Part shown: positions 2,156-20,154 of the stretch, in pieces
Position numbering within the stretch: the first letter of the stretch is position 1
How the letters are laid out: each line of letters starts with the position of its first letter
Source of the DNA: a virus
Reading direction: 5' to 3' (one strand)
DNA length: 64,000 nucleotides
IMG/VR virus record: IMGVR_UViG_3300011335_000809
Span: 51,570 to 115,569 of that record
The notes under the pieces: model-generated
The model's database searches: none
Seen by the model: the letters and a program-made list of their open reading frames with translations, nothing else
What the model was told of the DNA's origin: nothing
Translations under genes and position numbers: made by a program

Positions 2156-2191
2156 TCAAAAACCCGTCATTCTTTTTAAAAGTGACGGGTT
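2156..2191 (-). terminator. Intrinsic terminator of attenuator 1
   Basis: AACCCGTCA..TGACGGGTT hairpin followed by a U tract. Confidence 0.85.
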
Positions 2192-2218
2192 GTATATTTT
2201 TAGCAAACAACCACTCAC

Positions 2219-2272
2219 TCAACTTCCGGATGGGAGTTGACTGGCTTGACTAGGTTGTGAAATTAAATTCAT
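2219..2272 (-). CDS. Leader peptide MNLISQPSQASQLPSGS (putative attenuator of tRNA array 1)
   Basis: 17-codon ORF just upstream of antiterminator/terminator; rich in S/Q/P/L/G, matching downstream tRNAs. Confidence 0.75.
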   Translation of the reverse strand: MNLISQPSQASQLPSGS

Positions 2273-2350
2273 ATTCGTACTAATATATAGTGTTTGAAAT
2301 TATAAATCAACAAAATTATTTAATAATTTTCAAATAAACTTCATTAAATT

Positions 2351-4571: not shown

Positions 4572-4582
4572 ACTATACTTTT

Positions 4583-4674: not shown

Positions 4675-5088
4675 TTACTTCTTTTTAAGCTTACCCATAA
4701 GCTTTTTGAGTTTGTCAGGCTGATGTGCTTGTAACCATTTAAAATAATCTTCCTTCTCTCTACGTGAAAGCTCACTGTCTCTATAAAGACCAGCATACTT
4801 CTTTACAATATCTCTAAAAGGATCTCCACTTTCATTTGTCTTCTTAAGTCTATCTATCTTGGATTTCAACATTTTCTTATAATTATCCAAAGAACCATAA
4901 TCTTTTGCTCTACTTGGATCTGGATTTTTTAACAACTTTTCCAAGTCAGCAATATCTTTATTCTTATCATTTTCAGAAAGATGTGCGGTTAATTCATCAC
5001 TTTCAACTTCAGCAGCATTATCAAAATCTTCGTTTAATACTTCTCTTGTCAAACTTTTAATTAACTTCTTTAAATCATTTTTAGTCAT
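4675..5088 (-). CDS. hypothetical protein with MTKxxLKxLI..E N-terminus
   Basis: ORF preceded by TATTTATA motif. Confidence 0.75.
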   Translation of the reverse strand: MTKNDLKKLIKSLTREVLNEDFDNAAEVESDELTAHLSENDKNKDIADLEKLLKNPDPSRAKDYGSLDNYKKMLKSKIDRLKKTNESGDPFRDIVKKYAGLYRDSELSRREKEDYFKWLQAHQPDKLKKLMGKLKKK

Positions 5089-5123
5089 ATGTTATAAATA
5101 TAAATATTATTAATTAGCTACAT

Positions 5124-5294
5124 TTATTTTTCTTTTATACTATCACTCCAACCATTTCTATGTTTAAACATCCAATCCACTAACGCGGTCTCAAATCCTA
5201 TATCAGTCCCTCTTTTTTCACTCTCTATCCATTTGTGTATTTCTATCTCATTTTTTAATTGAAGAAACTTTTGATAGAGATTTGATTCGTTCAT
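5124..5294 (-). CDS. 56-aa DUF4032-like small protein (not in ORF track)
   Basis: MNESNLYQKF..EIEIHKWIESEKRGTDIGFETALVDWMFKHRNGW resembles small HKW.ESEK.G.DIGF proteins I recall from Verrucomicrobiota. Confidence 0.7.
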   Translation of the reverse strand: MNESNLYQKFLQLKNEIEIHKWIESEKRGTDIGFETALVDWMFKHRNGWSDSIKEK

Positions 5295-5313
5295 ACACAA
5301 ATAAATAGTATGA

Positions 5314-5784
5314 TTATTTAAGCGGTATATACAAATCTCCTGTTAATCCTTTTTGAGTTAAATAATTAGCATCGCTAATCGCTAACGGACTCTTAATATA
5401 ACCATATTTTTTACTCAATATTTTACGTAGTTCGTTACCAGCTAATTGTATCAAATCTAATTGTTCTTGTCCACCACTATTTTTAATTTTACCAGCAAGT
5501 CCAAACGGTAACATACGTTCATATTGTTTATACAAATTAATTATATCATTATAATGCGGCAACTCCAAGACAGGCCCTTTTAACTTAGTAGTTATTATTT
5601 GTTTACCAAATCGTTTAGCTACTTCTAAATTATCCGTATGATTTGCTCCCAATGTAGCCACTAACTTGTCACCTGGCTTGGTGCTGTTGATACCCAACCC
5701 AACATTACCATACGCAGGATTAACACCTCTATACACAGTCAATCCACCTGATTCTTCTTTCAATAAATCTTTTAATAATATCAT
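5314..5784 (-). CDS. hypothetical protein, possible ADP-ribosyltransferase-like fold
   Basis: MILLKDLLKE start; LTVYRG..HTD..EVAKRFG pattern. Confidence 0.55.
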   Translation of the reverse strand: MILLKDLLKEESGGLTVYRGVNPAYGNVGLGINSTKPGDKLVATLGANHTDNLEVAKRFGKQIITTKLKGPVLELPHYNDIINLYKQYERMLPFGLAGKIKNSGGQEQLDLIQLAGNELRKILSKKYGYIKSPLAISDANYLTQKGLTGDLYIPLK

Positions 5785-5806
5785 ATAGTAATAAATATAT
5801 AAAAAA

Positions 5807-5897
5807 TGGAGCACGATCAAGGTTACGCTCCTTGCATATGTACTTTCATACAACGATGTTTTGCAGACATCTCAGTTCTCTAGCTCCGTCATCGTGC
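5807..5897 (-). tRNA. tRNA-Cys(GCA) with long variable arm
   Basis: GCACGAT/ATCGTGC acceptor, U73+CCA, GATGT-CTGCAAA-ACATC, variable stem TGTAT-GAAA-GTACA. Confidence 0.85.
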
Positions 5898-5927
5898 TTT
5901 AAAAATGGAACCTATATAGGCATTAAA

Positions 5928-6731
5928 TCATTCAGTATCATTTGTACCAAAAATACGCTTCCAAATTCCTATTCTTTTAGGTTTTACTTCGGATTTTTCT
6001 TCTTTAGGTTGATTATCTTTGTCCAACTTAATGTGAACAGTTCGATTAGACATCCGCATCAATACCTCTGCACCTTTTGGCCACTCTCCCAATTTGTTCT
6101 TAAATTCATATCCATCTTTTTTCAGATTTACTCTCAAATTTTGAGTCAAAAGAGCATTTTCTTTCTTCAACTCTTCTATGATCTTTTCATACTCTACTAT
6201 CTTGTTCTTCAAAAAATCTCGTTCCTTTGTAAGCAATTCAATCTTAGATACAAGCTCATTTTGATCTTTATCAGTCTTTGCAACTTTAAGTTCATCACTC
6301 AAATCTACAATCTCTTTGGTCATACTAACAAGCGTATTGCGCAACGACTTTAAATCAGATTCAAGTGCAGATTTTTCTTGTGTCAAATCTTTGATCTTAA
6401 CATCTTTTTCATCAGATGATACTTTCAACTGTTCAGTAATACTATTTAATTGAGTCATATTAGTATACAATATACTCAACTTATTATCATAACTCTTCAA
6501 TAATACAGATAACTCCGTATTCTTTTGATTTAAATTGGTAATCAATAAACTTTGATTTACAACAATCTCTGTCTGGTTAACAACTTTCTTAGTTAACGCT
6601 TTATTATCTATATTCAATGAACTAAATAATGTATATAATCCAAAAGTTATTAATACAATTACAGCAATTATAACATATAATATCTTTTTATTAGTAACCG
6701 AAAATGTTTGGGGAGCGTTTGTAGATTCCAT
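5928..6731 (-). CDS. Membrane-anchored coiled-coil protein
   Basis: N-terminal TM helix, long heptad region. Confidence 0.75.
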   Translation of the reverse strand: MESTNAPQTFSVTNKKILYVIIAVIVLITFGLYTLFSSLNIDNKALTKKVVNQTEIVVNQSLLITNLNQKNTELSVLLKSYDNKLSILYTNMTQLNSITEQLKVSSDEKDVKIKDLTQEKSALESDLKSLRNTLVSMTKEIVDLSDELKVAKTDKDQNELVSKIELLTKERDFLKNKIVEYEKIIEELKKENALLTQNLRVNLKKDGYEFKNKLGEWPKGAEVLMRMSNRTVHIKLDKDNQPKEEKSEVKPKRIGIWKRIFGTNDTE

Positions 6732-6797
6732 AAATTTATTTTATTATATATATAATCCACTGACATTTAAATATTTTTTTAAAATATAATATCAAAG

Positions 6798-7277
6798 TTA
6801 CCAAGCCCTACATGACCAATATCTCGCTTTAGTACGTGGACCAGGATTATCACAATTGTGTCTTGCTCTAAAATTTTTTCTACGTGCTGGATTATTCTTT
6901 TTTATGGCCATTCTTTTACCTTTAGCTGAAGATCCACCAAATCCAAAATTTACCTTAACCACTTTTCCGTTGGGATTTTTAACGTATACTTTAGATTTCT
7001 TAACATCACCTTGCATTGGTTTACCAAGGATCACTTTACGACCATGATATTCTGCTTCACATAATGGTTGATTATATTCTCGCATGAATTGAACAAATTC
7101 TTTTACATCTCGTTCACTTTCAACATCATATTCTTCTATATTGTCTTCATCTACAAAACCTTCTTTTTTAACACAGTTTGGTACCATTCTTCCGCCTTTT
7201 TCTTTCATACCAATTTGTTTATAAGAGTCCCAACACGCCTCTTCAATCTCATTTAAAAGTTCTTTTAACTTAATCAT
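6798..7277 (-). CDS. Conserved phage hypothetical protein
   Basis: CW..YKQ.G.K.K.G..VPNCV and RRK.FRARH.C..PG..TKARYWSCR.W motifs. Confidence 0.8.
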   Translation of the reverse strand: MIKLKELLNEIEEACWDSYKQIGMKEKGGRMVPNCVKKEGFVDEDNIEEYDVESERDVKEFVQFMREYNQPLCEAEYHGRKVILGKPMQGDVKKSKVYVKNPNGKVVKVNFGFGGSSAKGKRMAIKKNNPARRKNFRARHNCDNPGPRTKARYWSCRAW

Positions 7278-7316
7278 ATCTATAAATATACAAATTAAAA
7301 TAAAACGTTTTAAAAA

Positions 7317-7512
7317 TGGCGATAGAGTTGGGAATCAAACCCAAACCTCAAGTTTTATTACCTTACTGGAGTTTATCGACGTGACAATCATAAGAATAAT
7401 ACATCTAAAATATAGGTTATTCCATAGTCGTCGTTTACATTTACCCAAATAAATTTGGATCATCCCAGCTACAGCTAACCTCTGTAACGTGCTTTCATTA
7501 CACTACTCTATC
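7317..7512 (-). ncRNA. tRNA-like RNA with ~115-nt structured variable-arm insertion
   Basis: Acceptor GATAGAG/CTCTATC+GCCA, D arm, TACAG-AGGTTAG-CTGTA arm, T arm TTGGG-TTTGATT-CCCAA. Confidence 0.7.
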
Positions 7513-7518
7513 ATAAAA

Positions 7519-7595
7519 TGGCGCACCCGGAGGGACTCTAACCCCCAACCTTTCCGGTAGAAACGGATGGCTCTATACAATTGAGCTACGAGTGC
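7519..7595 (-). tRNA. tRNA-Arg(UCU)
   Basis: TCCG-TTTCTAC-CGGA, CCA. Confidence 0.9.
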
Positions 7596-7602
7596 GTTAA
7601 AA

Positions 7603-7665
7603 TGGTTAGTAACTGTTCTCACCAGTGATCACTGAGTAAAAGGAATTGAACCCAACAATTACTAA
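7603..7665 (-). ncRNA. Small CCA-ended hairpin RNA with T-arm
   Basis: 12-bp terminal stem TTAGTAATTGTT/AACAGTTACTAA+CCA enclosing GGGTTCAATTCC and a second hairpin. Confidence 0.55.
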
Positions 7666-7672
7666 CAAAAAA

Positions 7673-7750
7673 TGGTTGTCCCGATTGGATTTGAACCAAC
7701 GACCTTTGTGTTATCAACACACTGCTCTAAACCAACTGAGCTACGGGACA
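7673..7750 (-). tRNA. tRNA-Ile(GAU)
   Basis: TGTG-TTGATAA-CACA, CCA. Confidence 0.93.
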
Positions 7751-7806
7751 ATTGAAAAATAATAATTTTGGCGATATTAAACATTCTCGTTCATATTTAT
7801 AATTGT

Positions 7807-8652
7807 ATGAAGAATATAACACCCACAGATAAAATTGTCAACTTAAAAAGTAGAGATCCAATTGAACTTGAATGTTACGAATGTAAATCAACTTATCAAC
7901 ACGCAAAACATCGTTATTTATGTTATAAACTTAAAGGAAAATTATCAGGATGTTTTTGCACACAAAAGTGTGCTATGACATACAAAAGTAAATTAAAAAA
8001 TATAAATACTAACTGTGAATATTGTAAAAAAGATATTACTAAAAGTTTGAATCAATATAAAAAATCTAAATTGCATTTTTGCTCAACTTCTTGTTCCGCA
8101 ACACATTGGAATAAAATTCACCATCCTATTAGGATAACAAAATCAAAAAGAACGGTAAAACTACCTATATTATTAACTTGTACAAATTGTTTAAATCAAC
8201 ATTATAGAAAATATTATAAATCAAGTAAAAGTGGTACCAATTTTTGTACTAGATCTTGTCAATCAATTTATGCAAATAAGACTTGGAATAAGTCTTCTAG
8301 GTTTGGAATAAATAAAAGTCGTTGTGAAACTATATTAAAAAATATTATTTTAAATGAATTTCCAAATTTACAAATTATTGAAAATGATAGAACTACAATT
8401 AAAGGCGGATTAGAAATAGATTTACACATACCAAGCAAAAATGTTGCAATTGAATTAAATGGTCCCTGTCATTATATTCCTATATTTGGTACAAAAGAAC
8501 TAGAAAAAACACAAAATAAAGATTTATTAAAAATTGAATATTGTCAAAATAATAACATTAAACTTTTCGTAGTTAATGTGATGGGATTAAAAAATCAAAT
8601 ACAAACATTAACTGATGTATTTAATACTACACTAAAATCACATTTAGTGTGA
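7807..8652 (+). CDS. Zinc-ribbon repeat + Vsr/DUF559-like putative homing endonuclease
   Basis: CxxC..FCSxxC repeats; S..E, LEID..IP..NVAIELNG..HY, D..K motif; antisense to the tRNA array. Confidence 0.75.
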   Translation: MKNITPTDKIVNLKSRDPIELECYECKSTYQHAKHRYLCYKLKGKLSGCFCTQKCAMTYKSKLKNINTNCEYCKKDITKSLNQYKKSKLHFCSTSCSATHWNKIHHPIRITKSKRTVKLPILLTCTNCLNQHYRKYYKSSKSGTNFCTRSCQSIYANKTWNKSSRFGINKSRCETILKNIILNEFPNLQIIENDRTTIKGGLEIDLHIPSKNVAIELNGPCHYIPIFGTKELEKTQNKDLLKIEYCQNNNIKLFVVNVMGLKNQIQTLTDVFNTTLKSHLV

Positions 8653-8655
8653 AAG

Positions 8656-8727
8656 CCCTCCATACGAGACTCGCACTCGTTACTACATCGTGACAGGATG
8701 TTATGATAACTCATTCAACAATGGAAG
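8656..8727 (-). tRNA. tRNA-Asp(GUC)
   Basis: ACATC-CTGTCAC-GATGT, G73, no CCA. Confidence 0.85.
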
Positions 8728-8891
8728 AAAAATAAATTGGTGCTGTGCTCTCCACGCCGTCTCTGTGTTTTACCGAATGTACCGGTCGGCAGTCACTTAT
8801 GGGGTCAGTTACCCATTACTAAATTGGCAGTTAGTTTAATGTGTCTTTACAGAAAAGATTTAACTACTAACTGTTCAGTGTTAGCTGAAGA

Positions 8892-8969
8892 TGGTGGATG
8901 CGGTGGGATTTGAACCCACAACCTTTCGGGTAAGAGCCGAATACTCTGATCCAGTTGAGTTACACATCC
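8892..8969 (-). tRNA. tRNA-Lys(CUU)
   Basis: TTCGG-CTCTTAC-CCGAA, CCA. Confidence 0.93.
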
Positions 8970-9008
8970 ATAAAAAATTGTATCTAATATTGTCAACGAA
9001 CTATAATC

Positions 9009-9036
9009 ATCTTACCACACTTTATTCTTCCGTCAA
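9009..9036 (-). promoter_or_regulatory. Internal sigma70-type promoter in tRNA array 2
   Basis: TTGACG-N16-TAAGAT with TG. Confidence 0.6.
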
Positions 9037-9196
9037 CAACTTTCTTAAAAAATATTCTGAACAAATCAACTTTATTTGAGTGGTAGCTGCACCCACTCTC
9101 CGTATTCCCAAATTAACCGTCTGGCCACATTCAAGGGCTTTCACTTGGATAGTTGATACCGGAGTATAGTGTTGTCTTCACCTAGTTCAGAAAAAA

Positions 9197-9314
9197 TGGT
9201 GGGCTACGACTGGACTTTCACCAGTAAACGATACAACCTTTCACTCAGGAACATACCCTCCTTCGGTTATATCAGCGGAGTCATCGCCGTGTCTTATATT
9301 TCCACCACACGCCC
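9197..9314 (-). ncRNA. tRNA-like RNA with multi-branched anticodon domain
   Basis: GGGC../..GCCC+ACCA, D-like arm, T arm ACTGG-TGAAAGT-CCAGT. Confidence 0.6.
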
Positions 9315-9324
9315 ATAAAAAAAT

Positions 9325-9580
9325 CTTAATGTCGCTCACGTACTGCGACTCTCACGGCCTCATAATGCGATGTGCGGGTGGCCGTTGTGCATTCAAACAA
9401 ATCTACCTCGCCTACTTTTTACGATATTGAACTGATTTAGCGACTGTTGTACCTGTTCGGCCCTTCCACCGACTCACGTTTTTTATGGTTGCCCATCGCA
9501 TTGTTATACAACAGTTTTATTTTCAGCGTTTACGTATATCCTTAGTTATCTTGATATGTTTCGTATATACACCAATTAAG
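9325..9580 (-). ncRNA. ~255-nt structured RNA of unknown class
   Basis: Ends pair (CTTAAT/ATTAAG); long-range helix AATGCGATG/CATCGCATT; GC-rich, no ORF. Confidence 0.55.
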
Positions 9581-9585
9581 AAAAA

Positions 9586-9661
9586 TGGTCCCAGTTGTTG
9601 GTTCCGCCCCAACCTCTATTCGTCTTCAGCGAATCGCTTTCACTAGGTTAGCTTAACTGGG
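9586..9661 (-). tRNA. tRNA-Phe(GAA)
   Basis: ATTCG-CTGAAGA-CGAAT, CCA. Confidence 0.9.
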
Positions 9662-9675
9662 ATTATAAATTAAAT

Positions 9676-9753
9676 TGACAAGTCAAAGGAATCGAACCTT
9701 TTCGGCACAGCATCACTGCACCTTTACCACGCCCTGCGCACTAGCACCTGTCA
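9676..9753 (-). ncRNA. tRNA-like RNA without canonical anticodon loop
   Basis: GACAGGT/ACTTGTC stem, T arm AAAGG-TTCGATT-CCTTT, 7-bp arm with 5-nt loop. Confidence 0.55.
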
Positions 9754-9760
9754 AAATCAC

Positions 9761-9908
9761 GATGTATGGTTGGATTCGAACCAACGGCTACTTTTACAAC
9801 CATTAACATATAATTAATGGAATTTTTATTTATTACAACCTAACATAAGATTTTTACGGGCTTACCCCATAGTTAGGTACTCTGCTCTGCCAACTGAGCT
9901 ACATACAA
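9761..9908 (-). ncRNA. tRNA-like RNA with ~90-nt replacement of anticodon/variable arms
   Basis: Canonical TAGCTCAGTTGGCAGAGC D arm and GTTGG-TTCGAAT-CCAAC T arm; internal ACCTAAC/GTTAGGT and CCATTAA/TTAATGG stems. Confidence 0.7.
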
Positions 9909-9917
9909 TGTTTAAAA

Positions 9918-10003
9918 TGGTGGGGTATGTAGGTAATGCGCCTACCGAGCCTTTCAGCGCCAGATTTACAGTCTGGACCATCTCTTTAATGGTATAATAC
10001 CCC
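9918..10003 (-). tRNA. tRNA-Tyr(GUA)
   Basis: CCAGA-CTGTAAA-TCTGG, long variable arm, CCA. Confidence 0.93.
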
Positions 10004-10134
10004 GAAAAATTTAACGTCATATGTTTGTTTCACCATATGACGGTGACTGAGGTTCTTCTTTCACCGTTACGTTCTAGTTATCCTCACCTATGCACAGGTA
10101 GAACGGCATTAGTCACTTCAGAAGACTTATAAAA

Positions 10135-10210
10135 TGGCTCCAAGAGAGGGCAACGATCCCCCAACCTTTCGGGTAACAACCGAATGCTCTACCAATTGAG
10201 CTATCTTGGA
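10135..10210 (-). tRNA. tRNA-Asn(GUU)
   Basis: TTCGG-TTGTTAC-CCGAA, GCCA. Confidence 0.93.
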
Positions 10211-10239
10211 ATTAAAAATTAAAAATGTTTACTGGATTT

Positions 10240-10401
10240 CAACGAACGTTCCATCTACTAATCATAACCTCGTCAGATTATAACATTCAATGTCTATCAG
10301 TGTCAATACATTACTTACTACTTCAACTATTGATTCAGATTCGAACTGAATTACTCCCGCTTATTCGTGCGGTTGTTTTACCAATTAAACTACGTTCGTT
10401 G
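10240..10401 (-). ncRNA. tRNA-like RNA with ~85-nt insertion between T arm and 3' acceptor strand
   Basis: CAACGAACG pairs with distant CGTTCGTTG; D arm, 8-nt anticodon loop, TTCAG-TTCGAAT-CTGAA. Confidence 0.6.
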
Positions 10402-10426
10402 CCTTCACCTAATGTATTTGAAAAAA

Positions 10427-10501
10427 TGGCAAAGTGGGTGGGTAACGCTCCCACATAAAGCAGTTTTGGAGACTGCTGCATTTCTTGTCTGCCACCACCT
10501 T
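10427..10501 (-). tRNA. tRNA-Trp(CCA)
   Basis: GCAGT-CTCCAAA-ACTGC, GCCA. Confidence 0.9.
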
Positions 10502-10560
10502 GTTAAAATGGTATCTCCACCGTTAATATTTCAGTGGCCGTACCTGTTACTCTCTGTAAA

Positions 10561-11631
10561 TTACGAAATTAATGTTGTTGATTCAGATTTTTTCTTTGCT
10601 TCTCTAACAGAGACATAATTGATGGTATTTTCAATTGAAATACCCACTTGTTCCGAAAGACGCAATCCACGATAATATTTTGTAGGAATTCCAACATACT
10701 CACTCATAGCTATTTCTTTACGTGTATCCTTGATAAATTTCATATTTTGAATTGGATACAAATTGTTATATCCAATTGAAGTTAGAATTCCATTACCAAA
10801 TAAGTTCATATGATAATCCGTAATTACATTGTAATATTTAACTTCTTCCATCACTACACTCTTTTTTATCAAGATTATTTCTTCACCTTTTACATTAAAT
10901 GTAATAGTGCCAATCGGTGTATCACTTGTCATCGGATAAGTAAATTTACCAGCCTGTTTATTAAAAATACGATGTTGTACAATTGTCTTTAAATAAGAAC
11001 CATCACTAAATTCCAATAGATTGTATTTGGTTGTTACTTCTGGCTGCTTTATATACAAAGGTTTTGCCGTATCAAACTTCGCTTCGTCAAAATTCCACAC
11101 AATAATATCGTCGATATAATCAATGTCTTCAATTGCTTTGGTTGTACCATCTGACAATGATACCAAAGTGCCTTCTGCTAAACACACAGAAACATATATC
11201 GATATATCTGTACCATATGCTGTTCCATTAACATTTGTTGCAAATGCTCTAATATAGACTAGACCATTTGTTGGGCTTATGTTCTGATTGCTACACGAAA
11301 ATGATCCAATTGAAGCCGTAGGATCCACATAAGCGGAATCTGTTGGAAGTGTTGGGTTTGGAGAATTGCTTGCTACGAATCCTCTAGATAATATCGGTGA
11401 ATTTCCATCAGATACTACTGTTCCTACGGCGCTAAAGTCGTAAAAAGCGCCGCCACTAGCACTATCTGTGGTCACGACTGGCAGTAGCGCCTGTAACGCC
11501 GATTCTTCTTGTTGTGCACCACCTGCAATTTGTTCTTCATATCCTCGCATCATTTTGGAATAATTTTGCATTATTTCGTGTAAGGGTAACTTTTCTTTGT
11601 TCTGTTGATAATAAGTCTGCCAATGTATCAT
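10561..11631 (-). CDS. FN3-like domain + Hint (intein-like) domain protein
   Basis: CLAEGTLVSLSDG..KAIEDI block A; YYNVITDYHMNLFGNGILTS C-terminal block; YIRAFATN..GTAYG FN3-like motif. Confidence 0.8.
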   Translation of the reverse strand: MIHWQTYYQQNKEKLPLHEIMQNYSKMMRGYEEQIAGGAQQEESALQALLPVVTTDSASGGAFYDFSAVGTVVSDGNSPILSRGFVASNSPNPTLPTDSAYVDPTASIGSFSCSNQNISPTNGLVYIRAFATNVNGTAYGTDISIYVSVCLAEGTLVSLSDGTTKAIEDIDYIDDIIVWNFDEAKFDTAKPLYIKQPEVTTKYNLLEFSDGSYLKTIVQHRIFNKQAGKFTYPMTSDTPIGTITFNVKGEEIILIKKSVVMEEVKYYNVITDYHMNLFGNGILTSIGYNNLYPIQNMKFIKDTRKEIAMSEYVGIPTKYYRGLRLSEQVGISIENTINYVSVREAKKKSESTTLIS

Positions 11632-11661
11632 ACATATATATATCCACCAACAATACTAAAA

Positions 11662-11736
11662 TGGTAGCCTATGCCGGTGCTGCCCCGGCTACTCTTGGAT
11701 GAAAGCCAAGTGACTTAGCTGGTTGTCGAATAGGCC
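11662..11736 (-). tRNA. tRNA-Glu(UUC)
   Basis: CTTGG-CTTTCAT-CCAAG, CCA. Confidence 0.92.
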
Positions 11737-11743
11737 ATTAAAT

Positions 11744-11821
11744 TGGTGCTTCAGTGAGGATTCGAACCCCAAACTCAATGTCCGTAGCATTGCGTGATAT
11801 ATCCATTTTCACCACTGAAGC
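11744..11821 (-). tRNA. tRNA-Arg(ACG)
   Basis: CAATG-CTACGGA-CATTG, CCA. Confidence 0.93.
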
Positions 11822-11827
11822 ATAAAT

Positions 11828-11903
11828 TGGGGTGATATACGAGTGCTGCCCTCGTTCCGTGAGTTTCACAAACTCAAATGCTAACTGTTACACCAATATC
11901 ACC
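11828..11903 (-). tRNA. tRNA-His(GUG)
   Basis: TGAGT-TTGTGAA-ACTCA, G-1:C73, CCA. Confidence 0.92.
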
Positions 11904-11915
11904 ATTACTATAAAT

Positions 11916-11991
11916 TGGAGCCGAAGACAGGACTTGAACCTGCAACCTGAACTTTACAAAAGTCCTGCTCTGCCAATTGAGCTACTTCGGC
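11916..11991 (-). tRNA. tRNA-Thr(UGU)
   Basis: GGACT-TTTGTAA-AGTTC, CCA. Confidence 0.95.
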
Positions 11992-12045
11992 GGTCTAAAT
12001 TTTCTTTGCTTATTTACTTATAACAATAACCTCAGTTATGTTATT

Positions 12046-12187
12046 ATCGCCCTATAGGTTCTGTATTTCAGCATAACACCTACGGACCAATCAATTGATT
12101 TTCCCAGTTCTCACCTTATCATCGGTCTTTCCGACTCACTGGCGGAGGCTCAACAGATGGAGTTTCAAGCCCTTCCTTTATCTTCTA
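12046..12187 (-). ncRNA. Structured RNA at head of tRNA array 2 (homolog of 2011-2119)
   Basis: Same conserved core with an extra GAAA-tetraloop insertion; directly after TTGACA..TAGACT promoter. Confidence 0.7.
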
Positions 12188-12311
12188 TCAGTCTATCATA
12201 ACTTTCGTCATTGTCAACCGACTTTTAAAATTTCTTTTTCATCATCCAATGAACTACTACCTTCGTTCACTGTTTAACTACTTTACCACACCTTCAAAGA
12301 ACGTCAACCAC

Positions 12312-12348
12312 AAAAATAAAAAAACCGTCACTTTTTAGTGTGACGGTT
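12312..12348 (-). terminator. Intrinsic terminator of attenuator 2
   Basis: AACCGTCAC..GTGACGGTT hairpin + U tract. Confidence 0.88.
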
Positions 12349-12379
12349 GATATTGTTTTGAAGTTACCTAAGTTTGAGT

Positions 12380-12457
12380 CTATACAATATCACCGCCAAC
12401 ACATTCACAATTCGTAAATGTATCCCAACGTTTAATATGTGTATACTGTACTCTCAT
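12380..12457 (-). CDS. Leader peptide MRVQYTHIKRWDTFTNCECVGGDIV (putative attenuator of tRNA array 2)
   Basis: 25-codon ORF whose 3' end GGCGGTGATATTGT is complementary to ACAATATC(A)ACCGTC, which includes the terminator 5' arm. Confidence 0.8.
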   Translation of the reverse strand: MRVQYTHIKRWDTFTNCECVGGDIV

Positions 12458-12737
12458 TATATTAATATATATTATCAAATTTACTAAACGTCAAGAATTT
12501 TTATTGCTAAAATTCTTTATAACTTTATACAAACTATAAAAACAATATGTTGTTAATACTGTCAAAGCACTAACTCCTAGACTCATTCCTATAGTCACTA
12601 CCCACCCAATTATATTACGTTGTTCTTCACTCAATGTAAACATATCTCAGAATATATACTCGATCATTAATCATTAAACTTAATATATTAAATTAAAATT
12701 ATAACCACTTATTACATCAATTCTATCTATATTAGTT

Positions 12738-13406
12738 ATGCATAATTTTACAATAGATTACACAGACGGCCTCAAAATAGACAACAACTTTTATGACACA
12801 GAATTTGCCGCCGGAAAAGAATCTCACTATATGGTCAAAACTTATTTTTGTCACAAAAAAATAAAACGTAGCCTGCAAACACATCCAGATCAATTGGGCA
12901 TAACCGCAACAATCGAAGAACTAGAATCCACTTCAAACAAAACAATACTCACATCAAACAATTGCAATTTGGGATGTTGGCTTATACCAAGTTTCTCAAA
13001 ATTCTTTGTGCCATATCACATAGACATTTATTATAACAAAGAATTGTATCAATCAGATACACTCGACTGTAAATTCAAATTGGTCAACTTCACTCTTCAT
13101 CCAAAAGATGATCGTGAACTATACACATGGATGAATGTTATAGAAAATTTTAAAAAACAAATGCAATGCGACATATCCATAAAAAATGATACAGTCGCTT
13201 CTACCACAGAATTTGACCACATCGCAGATGTAAAATATAAAACCGATGATGTAAATAAACAATACTATCTGGGCCTACACATAGGCAGATTCTACCAACC
13301 CAATACCAATATGCCAGATATAAACTATCACCCAGATCAATTACATAACAAAAATTCGCTGGACATCATCAATGATATACTATACTACTACACTACCATA
13401 ATTTAA
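12738..13406 (+). CDS. hypothetical protein (glyco-modification cluster)
   Basis: 222-aa ORF co-oriented with GT-like and FkbM genes. Confidence 0.7.
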   Translation: MHNFTIDYTDGLKIDNNFYDTEFAAGKESHYMVKTYFCHKKIKRSLQTHPDQLGITATIEELESTSNKTILTSNNCNLGCWLIPSFSKFFVPYHIDIYYNKELYQSDTLDCKFKLVNFTLHPKDDRELYTWMNVIENFKKQMQCDISIKNDTVASTTEFDHIADVKYKTDDVNKQYYLGLHIGRFYQPNTNMPDINYHPDQLHNKNSLDIINDILYYYTTII

Positions 13407-13416
13407 AATATACCAT

Positions 13417-14097
13417 ATGCACAATACAGTATTAATGATACTATCAGTCAGAAATTCCAAAAGCTTCGAAGAATCAGTTAATAAACTACAGTGTGAAAAA
13501 ATTTGGTTCAAAGGATATAGAGAACACGAATTGTCCCCAATAGTAAACGATTTCGTACGAAATTCAAATTTCGAAAATTATTTTATCACACCAGATGACT
13601 TGATAATAAAACCTCACCAATTCGAAAAATTAAAATTATCATTAAATCACAATGACATAGTATCAGGATGGGGAGTGATACGCCAAAATTGTACACACAC
13701 CACTATCACCAAACCACACAACTTTTTACAAACAAATATATTCAAACACCAATTCACATCACACGGTTTCAAAAATCAACAATACAACTTTTCATACAAA
13801 ACTCACGAAATTAACTCGCTTCCAAACGAAATAGAAACCGCATTCACAGGATGGTTTTATACAGGTATGAAAAAACACATATGGACTCAATATCCATACG
13901 AATGCCTAAACCCTCCATTCGCAAGCTCAGACCTGATGTTTAGTAGACGAGTTTTATTCGATAACAAATATAAACAAATTTGCATCAAAAGCGCAAACGT
14001 TATACACCTGTCCAACTCAACCACAATGCCAACCGATAAATCATTCTTCGATATGTCTACATGCTTCTCAAATAAATCAATAACCAAAACCTTCTAA
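13417..14097 (+). CDS. Putative GT-A fold glycosyltransferase-like protein
   Basis: YFITPDDL DxD-like motif, FTG..SDL.FS..V.HL pattern. Confidence 0.55.
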   Translation: MHNTVLMILSVRNSKSFEESVNKLQCEKIWFKGYREHELSPIVNDFVRNSNFENYFITPDDLIIKPHQFEKLKLSLNHNDIVSGWGVIRQNCTHTTITKPHNFLQTNIFKHQFTSHGFKNQQYNFSYKTHEINSLPNEIETAFTGWFYTGMKKHIWTQYPYECLNPPFASSDLMFSRRVLFDNKYKQICIKSANVIHLSNSTTMPTDKSFFDMSTCFSNKSITKTF

Positions 14098-14110
14098 TTA
14101 ACACCACACG

Positions 14111-14773
14111 ATGATACCAAATACCATATCCACCTTTCTACAATCAAACCCAAACGCCACCATTCTGCAAATAGGCGGCAACGATGGCACTCAAGACGAT
14201 TTTATAAAACCTATAATATATCAATATCCCAATACCACCCTACACACACTGGAACCCATACCTCAATACTACAAGGAACTACTCAATACCTACAAAGATT
14301 ATAAAAATGTGCACTGCCACAACTACGCAATCACTAATACCTCAGGCACAGATTTTATAAACTATATTCCCTACAACCACTCTATGCCAACTTGGCTAAA
14401 AGGTTGCTCCAGCTTTTTCACCAACAAAAATATCATCGACCCATATTGGCAAAATATAGTAAATAACCACAATGTTAACAATTACCTAAAAAATAACATA
14501 ATCAAACTGCAAGTAAATACCCTAACCTTCAATCACTTTGTAACACAACACAATATTAATAACATAGACATTTTGGTAATAGACACAGAAGGATACGAAT
14601 GTGAAATACTAAAACAAATAAATCTATCACAATTTACACCACACATAATAATACTAGAATTTCATAACCACTCCGACCAAGACAAAAATACAATCACCAA
14701 TATCCTAAAATCAAATAACTACACTTACAACATCCTACCAATGGACATCGTCGCCACAAAAATAATACCATAA
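14111..14773 (+). CDS. FkbM-family methyltransferase
   Basis: LQIGGNDG, LEP, IDILVIDTEGYECEIL, IILEF motifs. Confidence 0.9.
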   Translation: MIPNTISTFLQSNPNATILQIGGNDGTQDDFIKPIIYQYPNTTLHTLEPIPQYYKELLNTYKDYKNVHCHNYAITNTSGTDFINYIPYNHSMPTWLKGCSSFFTNKNIIDPYWQNIVNNHNVNNYLKNNIIKLQVNTLTFNHFVTQHNINNIDILVIDTEGYECEILKQINLSQFTPHIIILEFHNHSDQDKNTITNILKSNNYTYNILPMDIVATKIIP

Positions 14774-15119
14774 AACATATACAACTTTCCCCATAAAAAA
14801 ATTACCACCATGGTTTTTTAACACCATTTCAAACATAAACCAAAACTATACCACCAAAAATACCCTTTATCCCCACTTTTATAAGCACATCAAACAAATG
14901 TACATATGTGCTTTTCCCAAGTAAAAAACCTCCCTGTGTGACATGCGTACCTCCGCGAGGGTACCGCGGGGCTGTTTTGTATGTTCAGAACCACTTCGGT
15001 AGGGTGCTGCATACCCCCTCCCCCCTATTATAACAAAAAGAGGTAGGGAGCTATACCCCCTACCCCGTCAAGTTAATAAATAGGCTAAATGTGACATAGC
15101 CCCCCTACTGGCTCCCCTA

Positions 15120-15647
15120 TTAGTGCCACTCAGTGAATGTGTTGGTTTTACCGTTCCACTTAAAGGCAGTACTGAAGCTGTTGATCTTGAGGCACACATT
15201 GTTGCCATCTTTGGTGTTATAGCTATTGATACGTTTGGTGTATCGTTTGGTACCTACCTTAGTAGGATCAGGCACACATTCGCCTTGCATATCACCAGTG
15301 TAGTTTCTGGTTTGACCGATAGGAGCAATGACTACTGATTTATTTAGTACTTCGATTACCTTGTAGTAATCCACATTGGTTTGACCGTAGCCCCAGCTAC
15401 ATACGAAGATTTCGCCGGCGTTAACAGTAGGCAACGGTTTATTGACTAGAGTGACATCGATAGCGTTGACAGCGATATTGCCGCTTATGTTGATTGTGCG
15501 ATCAACTGGAGTACAATAGAGGATGCCTGTACGAGTAGTTTTCCAGACTTTGAGTTCGGTGCCTACTGGTATGACAGTGATTCGATTGTAACTACCGAGT
15601 ACGATCTGAATGTTATTAACAACTGTATCGTTCTTTTTAATAGCCAT
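15120..15647 (-). CDS. hypothetical phage protein
   Basis: SWGYGQTNVDYYKV motif common in phage early proteins. Confidence 0.75.
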   Translation of the reverse strand: MAIKKNDTVVNNIQIVLGSYNRITVIPVGTELKVWKTTRTGILYCTPVDRTINISGNIAVNAIDVTLVNKPLPTVNAGEIFVCSWGYGQTNVDYYKVIEVLNKSVVIAPIGQTRNYTGDMQGECVPDPTKVGTKRYTKRINSYNTKDGNNVCLKINSFSTAFKWNGKTNTFTEWH

Positions 15648-15902
15648 AGTGTAGTAGATTATTATTGTTGATGTATTACCCAGACCAAATTACTGATAGT
15701 CCTCCATACAAGCACTTTCACAGCGGTCCTCGTAGGCACTATCTAAATAAGCATCTTCGTTGGGAGCCACTTCCCGATAATCGGGAGCATACAGATCGGA
15801 GGTTTCGTTTTGCGGATCGATCACGTAAGAGTCAGCGTTCATTGTTTAAATATCTTATACTACCCAGACCAAACCTCAAGCTTTTTCCTAAGCTTTTTTT
15901 GA

Positions 15903-16100
15903 TTACTCAGCTTGGTGAAGTCCCCAGTACTTGTCCTGACAGGGTTGACAAGTGGCAGCGATCTTATACTCTTTTGCACTAAGAGCGTCACGAAAGTATG
16001 TTGCTGATTTACCACATTCAACACATTGATTACCGGCTTGTGCTAGTATGACACTACGGCCAAATAGCTTCATACTGAGGTTTTCTTTGAATGATTCCAT
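15903..16100 (-). CDS. small zinc-finger protein
   Basis: CVECG...CQPCQD. Confidence 0.65.
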   Translation of the reverse strand: MESFKENLSMKLFGRSVILAQAGNQCVECGKSATYFRDALSAKEYKIAATCQPCQDKYWGLHQAE

Positions 16101-16304
16101 ACTAGTTACTTTACCACGGATTTTTCTGAAAGTCCTGACTTAAATTCAAAATAATCTTGATATACTTTATTTTGATCCGCATGATTTCTTGAACAGATAT
16201 TGCCTAGTTCCCATTTTACAATACCTTGTTCTGTAAAATACTTATCTATCAATACGGCAGCATCAATAATTTCTTTTGGAATATCATCCATACTACTCAT
16301 AATA

Positions 16305-16589
16305 TTACTTATTGGCTAAATATTGATCAAAGTCATCTACATTGATGTTGGTGATATTGATAGTGTATCCTTTATCAGTCATAGCTTTGTAGAAGGTGTA
16401 TAGATCACAATCTTCTTCCAGATAGAACTTATGACGTTTAAGTGGGGAATAAGTAGTAATATCATCCCAAACCCCAGCAATATCTCGTACATCTTTGATA
16501 GGCACTTCTAACCAACTATGACCAGGATCATAAATACGAGTGTAGTTGCGGACCATAGTATCATTGCTGTATCGTTCGGTGAGAGTCAT
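16305..16589 (-). CDS. conserved hypothetical protein
   Basis: DPGHSWLEVP..YLEEDCD motif. Confidence 0.7.
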   Translation of the reverse strand: MTLTERYSNDTMVRNYTRIYDPGHSWLEVPIKDVRDIAGVWDDITTYSPLKRHKFYLEEDCDLYTFYKAMTDKGYTINITNINVDDFDQYLANK

Positions 16590-16746
16590 ATTATTATTAT
16601 TTATTCGTTGTAATAGTCACCCGCTTCGTTTTGATTGTAGTCTTGAAAGTCATCTTCACCACTACCATTACCCGTATAACTGGATGCATCACCACTAACA
16701 CGATCTTCGTAAGCAATATCTTCTGGGTCAATCATATTATTATTGT

Positions 16747-16956
16747 TTAGAGAGTAATTTTGAATTTACCAATAGTATTACCGTTAGTATCCACTATCTT
16801 ATGACCTTTATTGTTATTACGTTCCAGCTGGTAATTGGGATACAACATATGTTCATAAGCATAATCCCCAACCTGTTGTAGAATACGATTCACTTCCCCG
16901 AATTGGTTGTCCTCGAAAGCGGCGGTATCAGTGTCGAACTCAATAGTGATTTTCAT
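16747..16956 (-). CDS. hypothetical protein, paralog of 17003-17191
   Basis: MKI.IEFDTD.AAFEDN...DTNGN.IG shared. Confidence 0.75.
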   Translation of the reverse strand: MKITIEFDTDTAAFEDNQFGEVNRILQQVGDYAYEHMLYPNYQLERNNNKGHKIVDTNGNTIGKFKITL

Positions 16957-17002
16957 CGTGTAAATAGAATACCAGAGTTTTAGAGAAAGTCAACAGCTTT
17001 TT

Positions 17003-17191
17003 TTAATTACTTGAAATGCTCACAACACCGATTCGGTTGCCATTGGTATCCTTAATCGGACGGCGGATTCCAGTATTGTTTTCGCTGTCGATGATGGCGG
17101 CCTTGGCTTGCTGAACCGCCTTGGTGACCTCCATCAGAAAGTTATCTTCGAAAGCGGCGTTGTCGGTATCGAACTCAATTACAATCTTCAT
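17003..17191 (-). CDS. hypothetical protein, paralog of 16747-16956
   Basis: Shared motifs, own promoter repeat. Confidence 0.75.
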   Translation of the reverse strand: MKIVIEFDTDNAAFEDNFLMEVTKAVQQAKAAIIDSENNTGIRRPIKDTNGNRIGVVSISSN

Positions 17192-17251
17192 CGTGTAAAT
17201 AGAATATCAGCTTTTTATCGAAAGTCAACAGCTTTTTTTAACTATCCTCGA

Positions 17252-17587
17252 TTACTTAATCAGCGGGTTGTCGATTTGTTCCAACATATGGCCACCGTCA
17301 ATGTAAGTAAACTCAGCTTCTGTAATCTTATGGATATTATTAACATCAATTGCCTGATTGCGATAACCAACCATTGTACCAGTAAGAGGAACCAGTGACA
17401 CACGGTGCCAACCACCATAACTCATAAGAATGTAAATAGTGCCTAACGTGGGATGACGATAATAATTACCAACCTTATGAGTCCTAACAGGCTTAGCAAT
17501 ACCTGCCTTAATTGCCACATCAATATCAATATTGAATTCAACACCGTTGATATTGACACTAACCGTCTGAGTCTTAATAGCGATCAT
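17252..17587 (-). CDS. hypothetical protein
   Basis: ORF after promoter repeat. Confidence 0.65.
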   Translation of the reverse strand: MIAIKTQTVSVNINGVEFNIDIDVAIKAGIAKPVRTHKVGNYYRHPTLGTIYILMSYGGWHRVSLVPLTGTMVGYRNQAIDVNNIHKITEAEFTYIDGGHMLEQIDNPLIK

Positions 17588-17964
17588 TTGTTTTTTATTT
17601 ATTACGGAGATTAGTCTACAGTATTTTTACAAGAAAGTCAACAACTATTTTTAATTACCCTCGATTACCGAATCGAAGCGACGAAGCTGGGTCCATTGAC
17701 CAAGCGAACAAAGTAGCACTCATTGCGGTCGCTGTTCCAGCCGCTGAAGGTGAAATCCTTGCTGTTGTGGGTCAACACCTTGTTGGTGAGCAGCTTAACA
17801 TCATCCCAGCCGTTCGGCACCTTGAAGGTGAGAAACTCACGGTTGTCACCCGGCATAGCGGAATACTCAACCTGGATCTTGTTGGAGGCGATAGAAGCAA
17901 CGTTCATTGTGTAAATACTATACATCCACCAGGTGAAAACCTCAAGCTTTTTTTAAAACTTTTT

Positions 17965-18027
17965 GCGTTAATGTTAACGTAATCAGCGCACTCTCCGGTC
18001 CCCCACCCTGGCTTTGTCAGCCGATCT
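17965..18027 (-). repeat. Promoter-driven G-rich non-coding repeat, copy A
   Basis: AGATCGGCTGACAAAGCCAGGGTGGGGGACCGG..GATTACGTTAACATTAACGC after TTGACT-N16-TATAGT. Confidence 0.75.
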
Positions 18028-18152
18028 ATAAAGACTATACACTACCCAGTCAGGAAGTCAACACTTAGATGCAAAAAAATTGGGAGGATGTGTTGACCCT
18101 CCCAACCAATCAAAGTGTCTGTATGAGGCCCCTAGGGCGTTCTGGCTACCCT

Positions 18153-18536
18153 TTAGAAGACATCTATTCCGTCCAACGTAGCCTCAGCGCCATCTGGACT
18201 GCGACTGTACATCACATCACTTAGAGCAAACCAGGCACCTTCAGACCGTCGAGGACTGTTAGCAACATTTTGTTCCAATTGATAAACATATTCATCGGTC
18301 ACTAGTTTCCAACCAACGGATTGACACTGAAAATACTTACCATTAACACACACGATGTCATTTACACTCAGTGAACGCTTATTGGATTTGATAAACATTT
18401 CACACTCCATACAACTACCATTGTTCCACTCAGCAAATACACGTTCCAGATTGTCTTCCACTGACATATCATTAGTGGCAACATAAGAATATGTGGCTTC
18501 GTCAGGATAGATAACGTGAATTAGGTTCTTTTTCAT
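18153..18536 (-). CDS. hypothetical protein (YodL-like RSLSV.DIV motif)
   Basis: LERVF...RSLSVNDIV. Confidence 0.6.
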   Translation of the reverse strand: MKKNLIHVIYPDEATYSYVATNDMSVEDNLERVFAEWNNGSCMECEMFIKSNKRSLSVNDIVCVNGKYFQCQSVGWKLVTDEYVYQLEQNVANSPRRSEGAWFALSDVMYSRSPDGAEATLDGIDVF

Positions 18537-18645
18537 TACCCCAATAGAATAAACCCTTGATCGTTCAAAGTCAAGAGTTTTTTGACAAAAAACCAGATAG
18601 AGTACTTTGACCCTATCTGGTTGTTAAATGCTTAACCGTGATACT

Positions 18646-19218
18646 TTAAACCACAATGTACTCAGTAGCAGGCCTTCCTTTACCTTCACCTTTCACACTA
18701 CCATTAACCTTGATACTACCTTCCTTTTCCCACTGTTTGATAATAGGAAACAACACAGGTTGAGTAACACCCAACACACTCATAAGAAACTTAGCTGTAA
18801 ATTTGGTACCCGACTTGAGAGTCATATCTAACTTGATCTTAGTACCAGAGCCACGACGGCCACGATTACGTACACCGGTCTTAGCAGCTTCTTCCTTAGC
18901 ATCAGCACTATCCTTAGCTTTAATCACAAGTTGATCAAATCGTTCCTCTGCCTGACCAATATCACGACAATCAAAAGCAGTCTTACCAAATGCATTAGCG
19001 CCTGGATACTGTTCATACGATTCTTCTACAAACTTACCATTAGGCAACGGAGCTCCCTTAGGCACAACTTTCACAATAAACACTTCGTAGCTACGAGGAG
19101 TGCCATCGGTATTGAATCGTTGATAGATAGCCACGCCATTTTCCTTGCGGATTTGAACGAACTTGTTCATACCGACTTTGTCGTAGTTACCGGTGAATTC
19201 TTTTTGGAGCTTTTTCAT
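18646..19218 (-). CDS. hypothetical protein with C-terminal winged-HTH-like region
   Basis: ORF after promoter repeat; C-terminal G.GRP..EY wing motif. Confidence 0.65.
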   Translation of the reverse strand: MKKLQKEFTGNYDKVGMNKFVQIRKENGVAIYQRFNTDGTPRSYEVFIVKVVPKGAPLPNGKFVEESYEQYPGANAFGKTAFDCRDIGQAEERFDQLVIKAKDSADAKEEAAKTGVRNRGRRGSGTKIKLDMTLKSGTKFTAKFLMSVLGVTQPVLFPIIKQWEKEGSIKVNGSVKGEGKGRPATEYIVV

Positions 19219-19845
19219 TACGAGATACAGTCTACAGGAGTTTTGGTGAAAGTCAACTAAATTTTCAAATTATTCTGAACGCATGTCACGTTGGCTGATG
19301 CTATAAGTCATTTCTTGATATTTGCCTAGATCTTGATTACATACAGAGTCTGTGGATGTATCATAGATAGGCATAAAGTCTGGGTACTTGGCTCTAATTT
19401 CTGTATGAATATCTTCTAGGTTACTTAGTTTGGCACTATATAGAGCTACACTTTCTGCACTTGGAGTAGCTAAAGTATTTACGTAGTGATTTAGTTCTGT
19501 TAGGTACTTAGCATCTTCCAGCTGTTCTACTTGCAATTCAGGATCAATATTATTAGAATTCATATATTATAATATTTTAAATTTAGTTTAAGTCACCCCA
19601 GCTATAATTTGAAAAACTAAACTTATTGCTACTGCGCTTGTAGATCTTACTTGAGTCAATCCGCTTAGTGACTGGCTTAGTTGCGCCCCAGGTCTTACGA
19701 ATCTTAATTTTAACTTTCATATTTTATTTATTATAAATTTATCAGGAAATTTTCAGGAGTCAAGACTTATTTTAGCCGCTTTCAGCGCTAATAACTAGTC
19801 TTTTTATAAAACTACGATATTATTTTAATTTAGAAATATCGAGAG

Positions 19846-20154
19846 TTATTTCCAATTAGACTTAATTTTCTTAGGTTTATGTACTGACAGACTAATGATT
19901 TGGTTATTGCCTTTATTATCAACAAATGTAATTTCATCCTTACTAATAGTAGCTTTATCCAAAGCACCCTCGGTAATATTGATCATTTTAGTACCATAGT
20001 TTTTAACGACTTCAAGAAGAATCACTGAATTATTCGGATTACCAGTGATAGTTTCGTCGTAATAAAAATTACAAACGCCGCAATATTTTTGGGAATAGAT
20101 TTCTGAAGCAGTAGCAATAGCTTCAAGCAAATAATCAACCTTTTTTGTATTCAT
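19846..20154 (-). CDS. hypothetical protein
   Basis: ORF after promoter repeat. Confidence 0.7.
   Translation of the reverse strand: MNTKKVDYLLEAIATASEIYSQKYCGVCNFYYDETITGNPNNSVILLEVVKNYGTKMINITEGALDKATISKDEITFVDNKGNNQIISLSVHKPKKIKSNWK

Follow-up and report, generated by a model that had tools for sequence, protein, structure and literature searches.

Bacteriophages are regarded as using their transfer RNA (tRNA) genes to counter codon mismatch, host shut-off and defence systems that cleave tRNAs, and how the expression of these genes is controlled is, to our knowledge, essentially unknown. The question is raised by a stretch of 64,000 nucleotides (nt) of viral DNA, hereafter the window, which forms the right-hand 64 kb (positions 51,570 to 115,569) of the 115.6-kb phage record IMGVR_UViG_3300011335_000809 (G+C 33%). 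On the minus strand of the window, a 25-codon open reading frame (ORF) and an intrinsic terminator stand ahead of a group of tRNA genes, here called array 2, and an earlier sequence-only reading had proposed that they form a leader-peptide attenuator in which a ribosome stalled at codons for the amino acids of the array allows transcription to continue into the tRNA genes. Does the decoding of this ORF set the transcription of the tRNAs behind it? On balance, and with considerable reserve, we favour the view that the element is a ribosome-mediated, trp-type transcription attenuator with many inputs that feeds back on tRNA supply.

The source is an uncultured freshwater giant phage. River and lake metagenomes contain DNA near-identical to the window, and related contigs in IMG/VR reach ~300 kb, and near and distant DNA searches and protein searches of cultured phages returned tRNA-level matches or none. 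Homologous leader loci were collected through a neighbouring protein (7 loci) and through motif scans (further ones), and the leader-terminator unit is kept in at least 12 related IMG/VR contigs, at identities of 72-93%.

Results

Organization of the leader-terminator unit

Read along the minus strand, the locus consists of the end of a 50-codon ORF, a promoter, the leader ORF, a variable stretch of ~25 nt, the sequence ACAATATCAACCGTCAC, and the terminator hairpin with its U run. The terminator is followed by two sigma70-type promoters, ~190 nt of conserved RNA, and the tRNA-Thr gene at 11991. The parts of the unit are as follows.

12464..12494, minus strand: leader promoter, read from the sequence, with a -35 box TTGACG (12494-12489), a 17-nt spacer and a -10 box TATATA/TATATATT (12471-12464)
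12380..12457, minus strand: leader ORF (leader 2), 25 codons plus stop; codons 5-19 specify only amino acids with downstream tRNAs
12433..12455, minus strand: segment 1 (codons 1-8), which pairs with segment 2; putative anti-antiterminator
12398..12424, minus strand: internal hairpin P1, within the ORF; one A-U to C-G compensatory pair in 4 sequences; absent in L007
12384..12399, minus strand: segment 2, UUGGCGG plus UGAUAUUGU, the final ORF codons; UGAUAUUGU is invariant
12341..12356, minus strand: segment 3, ACAAUAUCA-A-CCGUCA, which pairs with segment 2 (antiterminator) or, via AACCGUCAC, with segment 4
12312..12348, minus strand: intrinsic terminator, with arms at 12348-12340 and 12331-12323, an 8-nt loop and a U tract at 12322-12312

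The ORF reads as it had been quoted earlier, from ATG at 12457 to TAG ending at 12380. Its ATG lies 6 nt past the -10 motif, so the leader mRNA, whose transcription start we infer from the sequence, is probably leaderless or nearly so. The promoter is present in all relatives, including those with unrelated DNA further upstream; where the upstream DNA differs, homology begins at the -35 box, and the unit is conserved from there to the U tract. In L007 (which carries a 1.65-kb insertion), L011, L012 and L018 the upstream DNA is unrelated, which argues that the unit has a promoter of its own. The 50-codon ORF upstream in the window (12491-12643, minus strand) is hydrophobic and starts 7 nt past another TATATATT word. 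Considered as a candidate phage-specific (late) promoter word, TATATATT has 30 copies in 115 kb, with no clear association with genes.

Several properties of the ORF lead us to argue that it is translated. The ATG and the frame are kept in eight leader-2 variants (a ninth peptide variant occurs in L158), across in-frame indels of +6 (the L003 group), -6 (L007), +6 (two Asn codons, L072) and +9 (L080). The sole out-of-frame indel, of 1 nt in L011, only shifts the stop to a TGA within cTGATATTGT. Counted by eye, 7 of 11 variable sites are third positions, and the synonymous changes seen in relatives include ACA/ACC, CGT/CGC, AAA/AAG and ACG/ACA. A missing Shine-Dalgarno sequence was dropped as a case against translation of the leader, since a motif of this type was found with only 16 of 100 long ORFs of the genome; initiation that is leaderless or independent of Shine-Dalgarno sequences may thus be common in this phage.

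Alternative RNA pairings

The terminator named in the sequence-only reading is present, as a 9-base-pair (bp) stem with five G-C pairs followed by a U run. Folding of the full-length RNA gives this terminator together with a long hairpin between the 5' part and the 3' end of the ORF (-39.2 kcal/mol, z = -4.5); the ORF folded by itself reaches -25.4 kcal/mol (z = -4.15). When the RNA is truncated after the 5' arm of the terminator, the minimum free energy structure is the 14-bp helix that had been described between the last codons and that arm, which it consumes. The trp-type anatomy proposed earlier, with an ORF that overlaps the 5' strand of an antiterminator, is therefore borne out, and it is conserved and shows covariation; the pairing of segments 1 and 2, found in addition, completes a four-segment design.

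The 1:2, 2:3 (antiterminator) and 3:4 (terminator) helices are mutually exclusive, and all three are possible in each of the nine homologues tested. The full-length fold is 1:2 plus 3:4 in every homologue, and the fold truncated at the end of the terminator 5' arm is 2:3 in all of them except L007. RNAalifold retains an invariant 9-bp helix, the terminator, and the internal hairpin with its one compensatory pair. In the core of the 1:2 helix, 95.8% of cells are paired across the nine homologues, versus 26-51% in slid controls; the corresponding values for the 2:3 helix are 90% versus 30-61%, and the terminator is paired in 100% of cells in 12 sequences. At column 8/67 of the 2:3 helix, C-G in seven sequences is replaced by U-A in L080, and the one compensatory pair in the terminator (G-C to A-U) occurs in L080 as well. 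Its terminator arms change from CCGUCAC/GUGACGG to CCAUCAC/GUGGUGG and its segment 2 to GUGUUGG, such that a G>A in segment 3 is accompanied by C>U in both of its partners, segments 2 and 4.

The segment-2 motif UGRCGG is kept across four codon phases (GGC GGT, G GCG G, GAC GGC and G ACG G), which places a constraint at the nucleotide level. The leader-2 stop at 12382-12380 lies just behind segment 2, and the stop falls within segment 2 or at most 6 nt from it in all variants of both leaders (the second is described below). Judged from the size of the ribosome footprint, a ribosome at the stop would cover segment 2. P1 is a possible RNA polymerase pause hairpin.

Codon content of leader 2 and of array 2

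The genes behind the unit, with which its codons are to be compared, are the following.

5807..11991, minus strand: tRNA array 2, with Thr, His, Arg(ACG), Glu, Trp, Asn, Tyr, an Ile-like gene, Phe, Lys(CUU), Asp, Ile, Arg(UCU) and, farther on, Cys

The tRNAs are interspersed with ORFs and tRNA-like elements. The list given in the sequence-only reading was right, although standard tools recover it incompletely. ARAGORN at default settings reports nine (Thr, Arg(ACG), Trp, Asn, two Ile, Lys(CUU), Asp and Arg(UCU)), Rfam adds His(GUG) at 11902-11831, and Phe and Cys appear only with a lowered ARAGORN threshold. Glu(UUC) at 11736-11660 and Tyr(GUA) at ~10014-9928, which have odd D or T arms, were identified by hand and by anticodon-arm scoring.

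Our recount of the leader agrees with the earlier one: 16 of the 18 codons at positions 2-19 belong to the set Thr, His, Arg, Glu, Trp, Asn, Tyr, Phe, Lys, Asp, Ile and Cys, and all 12 amino acids are present. The ORF contains no Ser, Pro or Leu codon, as had been stated, and no Ala codon. It does contain three Val, one Gln and two Gly codons, whose tRNAs belong to array 1 (below), and five of these six lie at codons 3-4 or among the last six. Over eight variants, 124 of 129 middle codons fall in the array-2 set; the counts are 13 of 24 for codons 2-4 and 20 of 48 for the last six codons, which coincide with segment 2.

Under a null with the composition of the proteome, a fixed 18-mer contains all 12 amino acids with p ~1.5e-5, and leader 2 alone reaches 12/12 among the 1137 small ORFs (19-45 codons) of the genome, but the choice of codons 2-19 and the counting of the distant Cys gene were post hoc. 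Under a null that keeps the base composition of leader 2, the coverage has p = 0.0025 and the precision only p = 0.057. Thus, taken by itself, the codon match of leader 2 is moderate, suggestive rather than compelling, and it becomes strong only jointly with the paralogous leader.

A paralogous unit ahead of array 1

A second unit of the same kind lies elsewhere in the window.

2156..2289, minus strand: paralogous module, with TATATATT at 2289-2282, a 17-codon leader ORF (leader 1) at 2271-2218 and a terminator at 2191-2161
2257-2252, 2211-2206 and 2193-2188, minus strand: its alternative pairing strands ACAACC, GGTTGT and ACAACC, respectively

The terminator of this module is related to that of leader 2, and both leaders share a TATATATT-N8-9-ATG arrangement. 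Behind it stand a sigma70 promoter, a structured RNA and then tRNAs for Val, Pro, Leu, Ser, Gly, Gln, Pro, Ala and Gly (array 1). Leader 1 contains 13 consecutive codons for Ser, Gln, Pro, Ala, Leu and Gly only. After codon 4, 79 of 85 codons in six variants specify Val, Pro, Leu, Ser, Gly, Gln or Ala; one variant has 21 of 22 in the array-1 set, and further variants look alike. Lineages of leader 1 with different terminators have a matching segment 2, CCGUUGGUC in L025/L022 and CCCACCAAUC in L140/L170. When codons of leader and array set are cross-tabulated, Fisher tests give p = 2.4e-4 in the window genome (G000), and p = 3.9e-8 (G002), 1e-4 (G005) and 1.1e-3 (G003) in relatives.

These results bear directly on the leading competitor of a codon-specific sensor, namely that the attenuator is real but reports general translation status, the amino-acid match being a by-product of base composition, of constraints from RNA pairing, and of a division of the arrays into family-box and split-box amino acids. 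We regard this as unlikely, although several observations speak for it. The amino acids of leader 2 occur one to four times each, with no tandem codon runs, and single regulatory codons give classical attenuators only weak sensitivity. GC-rich family-box amino acids predominate in array 1 and AT-rich split-box ones in array 2, C is abundant in leader 1 and scarce in leader 2, and with its AT-rich composition kept the enrichment of leader 2 is only p ~0.05. Several tRNA losses, moreover, are untracked by the leaders. Leader 1, however, stands far above its own composition null, with shuffles that preserve base composition giving p <=0.002 in all six variants and <=1.4e-4 in four of them. Among relatives its peptide diverges in sequence and in length (17-23 codons), but its composition is kept. 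The exceptions to a G+C rule also follow array membership, Gln being an array-1 amino acid, and Thr and Arg array-2 amino acids, in the leaders as well as in the arrays, which weakens the idea of sorting by G+C.

Single tRNA genes provide a finer comparison. Leu UUG and Ala GCG codons go with the location of their tRNA genes. G002 is alone in carrying Leu(CAA) and Leu(UAA) in array 2, and a Leu UUG codon in leader 2 is likewise confined to it; Ala(CGC) in array 1 and a GCG codon in leader 1 are both peculiar to G005. Leu(CAA) is found in array 1 of both G005 and G004, with UUG occurring twice in leader 1 of G005 and not at all in that of G004. Four observations go the other way and count against a codon-specific sensor. 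G001 is without Asn, Tyr and Asp tRNAs yet retains those leader codons; L002 is without Thr(UGU), a loss that its leader does not track; L003 has a Cys tRNA and a leader without a Cys codon; and codons and anticodons misfit for AAA versus the sole Lys(CUU) of the window genome, a caveat of the sequence-only reading that holds, and for ACC versus Thr(UGU) in relatives. Co-variation tRNA by tRNA is therefore mixed, and we do not claim tight tracking. The earlier expectation that leader codons follow array content in relatives stands for composition within each set and for the complementary set of the paralogous leader; for individual gains and losses of tRNAs it stands only in part.

The region behind the terminator and within array 2

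Between the terminator and the first tRNA lie three further conserved features.

12280..12307, minus strand: sigma70-type promoter (TTGACG, 16 nt, TG-n-TAAAGT) that immediately follows the terminator; all relatives have it, as does the paralogous module
12190..12217, minus strand: second sigma70-type promoter, TTGACA, 16 nt, TAGACT; conserved
11995..12185, minus strand: conserved structured leader RNA with the core TTGAAACTCYATCTG ... GGCGAT, between the promoters and the first tRNA

The warning in the sequence-only reading that downstream sigma70 promoters could drive the array was apt: both promoters, at 12307-12280 and 12217-12190, are real, and their conservation counts against a strict reading of the element as an attenuator. 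Array 2 is not dependent on read-through, and since these promoters stand behind the terminator, the attenuator can only modulate tRNA output by adding to tRNA transcription and is not its sole gate. It is a matter of speculation that it may act while the sigma70 promoters are off.

The TTGAAACTCYATCTG ... GGCGAT RNA heads both arrays (the array-1 copy lies at 1985-2110, minus strand). A probe of 14 bases for it gave a flood of chance matches, and a two-part pattern was used, which is found in 42 IMG/VR stretches.

Several genes of array 2 are unusual in themselves. The T loop is GGCAGCA in His (11831-11902, minus strand) and Glu (11660-11736, minus strand), both missed by standard ARAGORN, and GCGTTAC in Trp (10427-10501, minus strand); these genes end in an encoded CCA. 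Elements that resemble tRNAs and contain insertions of 30-80 nt, and one tRNA-like element that has no acceptor stem, occur at 9765-9912 and 10334-10392 (minus strand) and at L021:2887-3009 and L021:3708-3809, and they are kept in relatives as Rfam tRNA matches of 102 nt and 123 nt. Three relatives (L021:1273-1348, L024:920-995 and L025:1027-1102) have, between His and Arg(ACG), an ARAGORN tRNA with the four-base anticodon CTCT, which does not occur in the window. Within array 2 lie an ORF resembling HNH/homing endonucleases on the opposite strand (7768-8652, plus strand) and a 356-codon ORF with no PHROGs match (10561-11631, minus strand), and close relatives differ in tRNA content near insertions of these ORFs. 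Searches of PHROGs with the ORFs flanking the leader returned no match; other neighbouring ORFs matched a helicase, a methyltransferase and an HNH endonuclease.

Discussion

Proposed mechanism

The conserved features, covariation and composition match described above are observations of the sequence, from which we infer translation of the ORF, the geometry of stalling and the effect on tRNA output. The RNA started from the promoter would be essentially leaderless, with the 25-codon ORF as its first 78 nt. With no ribosome on the RNA, segments 1 and 2 would pair, the 3:4 terminator would form, and an RNA of ~140 nt would be released. A ribosome running smoothly to the stop would cover segment 2, so that 3:4 would again form and transcription would end. 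A ribosome held at about codons 2-16 would cover segment 1 and leave segment 2 free to pair with segment 3, and no terminator would form. The read-through RNA would then extend past the downstream promoters and the structured RNA, reach the tRNA genes and add to the tRNA precursors. Slow decoding of any of the 12 amino acids for want of charged tRNA, whether through codon-usage mismatch, host shut-off or tRNA cleavage, would in this manner raise transcription of the same tRNA set, and the outcome would be a negative feedback loop on tRNA supply. Array 1 would be served by its own paralogous leader, in the complementary seven amino acids.

The sequence-only reading had held that a stall at any codon before the stop gives read-through. 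The composition match speaks for such a sensor, but a full 12/12 is too generous, since codons 17-19 (Cys, Glu, Cys) lie too close to segment 2. To judge from the size of the footprint, which would already extend over segment 2, a stall there should favour termination.

Other considerations also weigh against an attenuator of this kind. The relatives constitute one family and are not independent replicates. The 1:2 helix shows conservation only, with no compensatory (double) change in the alignment of homologues. The conserved residue order YT-IKRW-TFT of leader 2 also fits a functional micropeptide or a constraint on the RNA. The four RNA libraries consist of assembled contigs, which give no starts, ends or levels, and missing cover upstream of 12456 is no evidence. 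Weakly in favour of the attenuator, a metatranscriptome contig from a relative (X17, 12018-12365) bridges the terminator into the downstream region, and another RNA-library contig of a relative carries the leader ORF; both may be DNA carried over into RNA libraries. A further RNA contig, X18, ends 26 nt past the U tract and was not counted as bridging.

Might the unit instead be a stand-alone small gene beside the tRNA block, encoding a micropeptide or a stable RNA of ~140 nt, with helices that stabilize the RNA and with tRNA transcription left to the downstream promoters alone? A promoter, 140 nt, a strong terminator and at once strong promoters would suit such a gene, as would the conserved order of residues just mentioned, and the tRNA region of phage T5 likewise has small ORFs and stable RNAs. 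We nevertheless consider it improbable, for UGRCGG is kept independently of frame, the three-way covariation links the end of the ORF to the terminator arm, the stop always lies in or just behind segment 2, and a paralogous unit with the same logic and complementary composition stands on the other array. The sole Rfam match is to the small RNA STnc240, an identity that we rejected: it scores 30.6 bits against a gathering score of 55 (E = 0.47) and covers the terminator only. That the leader arose by chance as an ORF within the 3' untranslated end of the 50-codon gene upstream, ahead of an ordinary terminator that insulates the tRNA promoters, is hardly credible even in an AT-rich genome with 1137 short ORFs (19-45 codons), where a terminator ahead of a strong promoter is a common layout, given that the unit and its own promoter are kept in contigs in which that gene is missing or replaced (L007, L011, L012, L018), that the frame is kept across indels, and that fold z-scores, covariation and composition statistics all speak against it.

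The many-input attenuator can be carried a step further. Each tRNA block of the family might be autoregulated by a leaderless test ORF of its own, whose codons match the tRNA set of the block exactly, in a modular codon-roster feedback that detects loss of specific tRNAs, including their cleavage by host anticodon nucleases, and replaces them from the affected block. We offer this extension tentatively and think it possible but doubtful; if true, codon-roster feedback would be both an inducible counter-defence and a homeostat.

The attenuator itself, if real, would be the first described feedback control of tRNA genes through the ribosome, and would amount to a compact, portable sensor of tRNA supply. 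Its promoters are near the E. coli consensus, so the module should work in a reconstituted system with defined sets of tRNAs.

Comparison with known systems

A leader peptide and terminator on a gene of the translation apparatus are known from the pheST operon of E. coli, where the pheM leader senses the cognate charged tRNA. That leader controls a synthetase, through a run of codons for the single amino acid Phe, whereas the phage element stands ahead of tRNA genes. T-box riboswitches likewise sense the supply of a given charged tRNA through a choice of terminator or antiterminator, but they bind uncharged tRNA directly and have no ORF. No Rfam match to a T-box was found in positions 1-20000 of the window at E up to 1.

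The tRNA region of phage T5 (NC_005859) resembles that of the window as a mosaic of tRNAs, small ORFs, stable RNAs that resemble tRNAs, HNH endonucleases and sigma70 promoters. Within positions 28000-50000 of NC_005859 the Tyr, Glu, Trp, Phe, Cys, Asn and Asp tRNAs stand together, and those for Pro, Val, Ala, Leu, Ser, Gln and Gly mostly come later, a grouping that partially echoes the two-set split in the window. A simple scan of the T5 tRNA region for intrinsic terminators on the same strand found none that separates promoters from tRNA groups, and window and T5 have no detectable sequence similarity.

In Anabaena sp. PCC 7120, a long tRNA array is induced when translation is impaired (PMC8421152). 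Like the array studied here, it is a horizontally mobile block of extra tRNAs with a homing endonuclease adjoining, and it is switched on by translational stress; it is bacterial, no leader-peptide switch is described for it, and the words attenuator, leader and terminator are absent from the paper (PMC8421152). A full-text literature search, with older non-open T5 papers outside its scope, likewise returned no account of attenuators ahead of phage tRNA genes.

Leader attenuators are known from the enterobacterial trp, his, leu and pheA operons, and multivalent ones from thr (Thr and Ile) and ilvGMEDA (Leu, Val and Ile). These last two are the closest known systems. They share with the phage element a short 5' ORF, four segments with 1:2, 2:3 and 3:4 alternatives, a stop that lets a finishing ribosome cover segment 2, and leader codons that, by composition, name the downstream product. 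The differences are also clear. The phage element would act on tRNAs rather than on enzymes, it is probably leaderless, and it is found in a phage. Promoters that look constitutive stand behind its terminator, where a classical attenuator has none ahead of the genes it regulates. The thr and ilv leaders read one to three amino acids in tandem runs, whereas the phage element would read 12 inputs (its paralog seven) through single codons, and if this is true it extends the logic of trp and his from 1-3 to 7-12 inputs.

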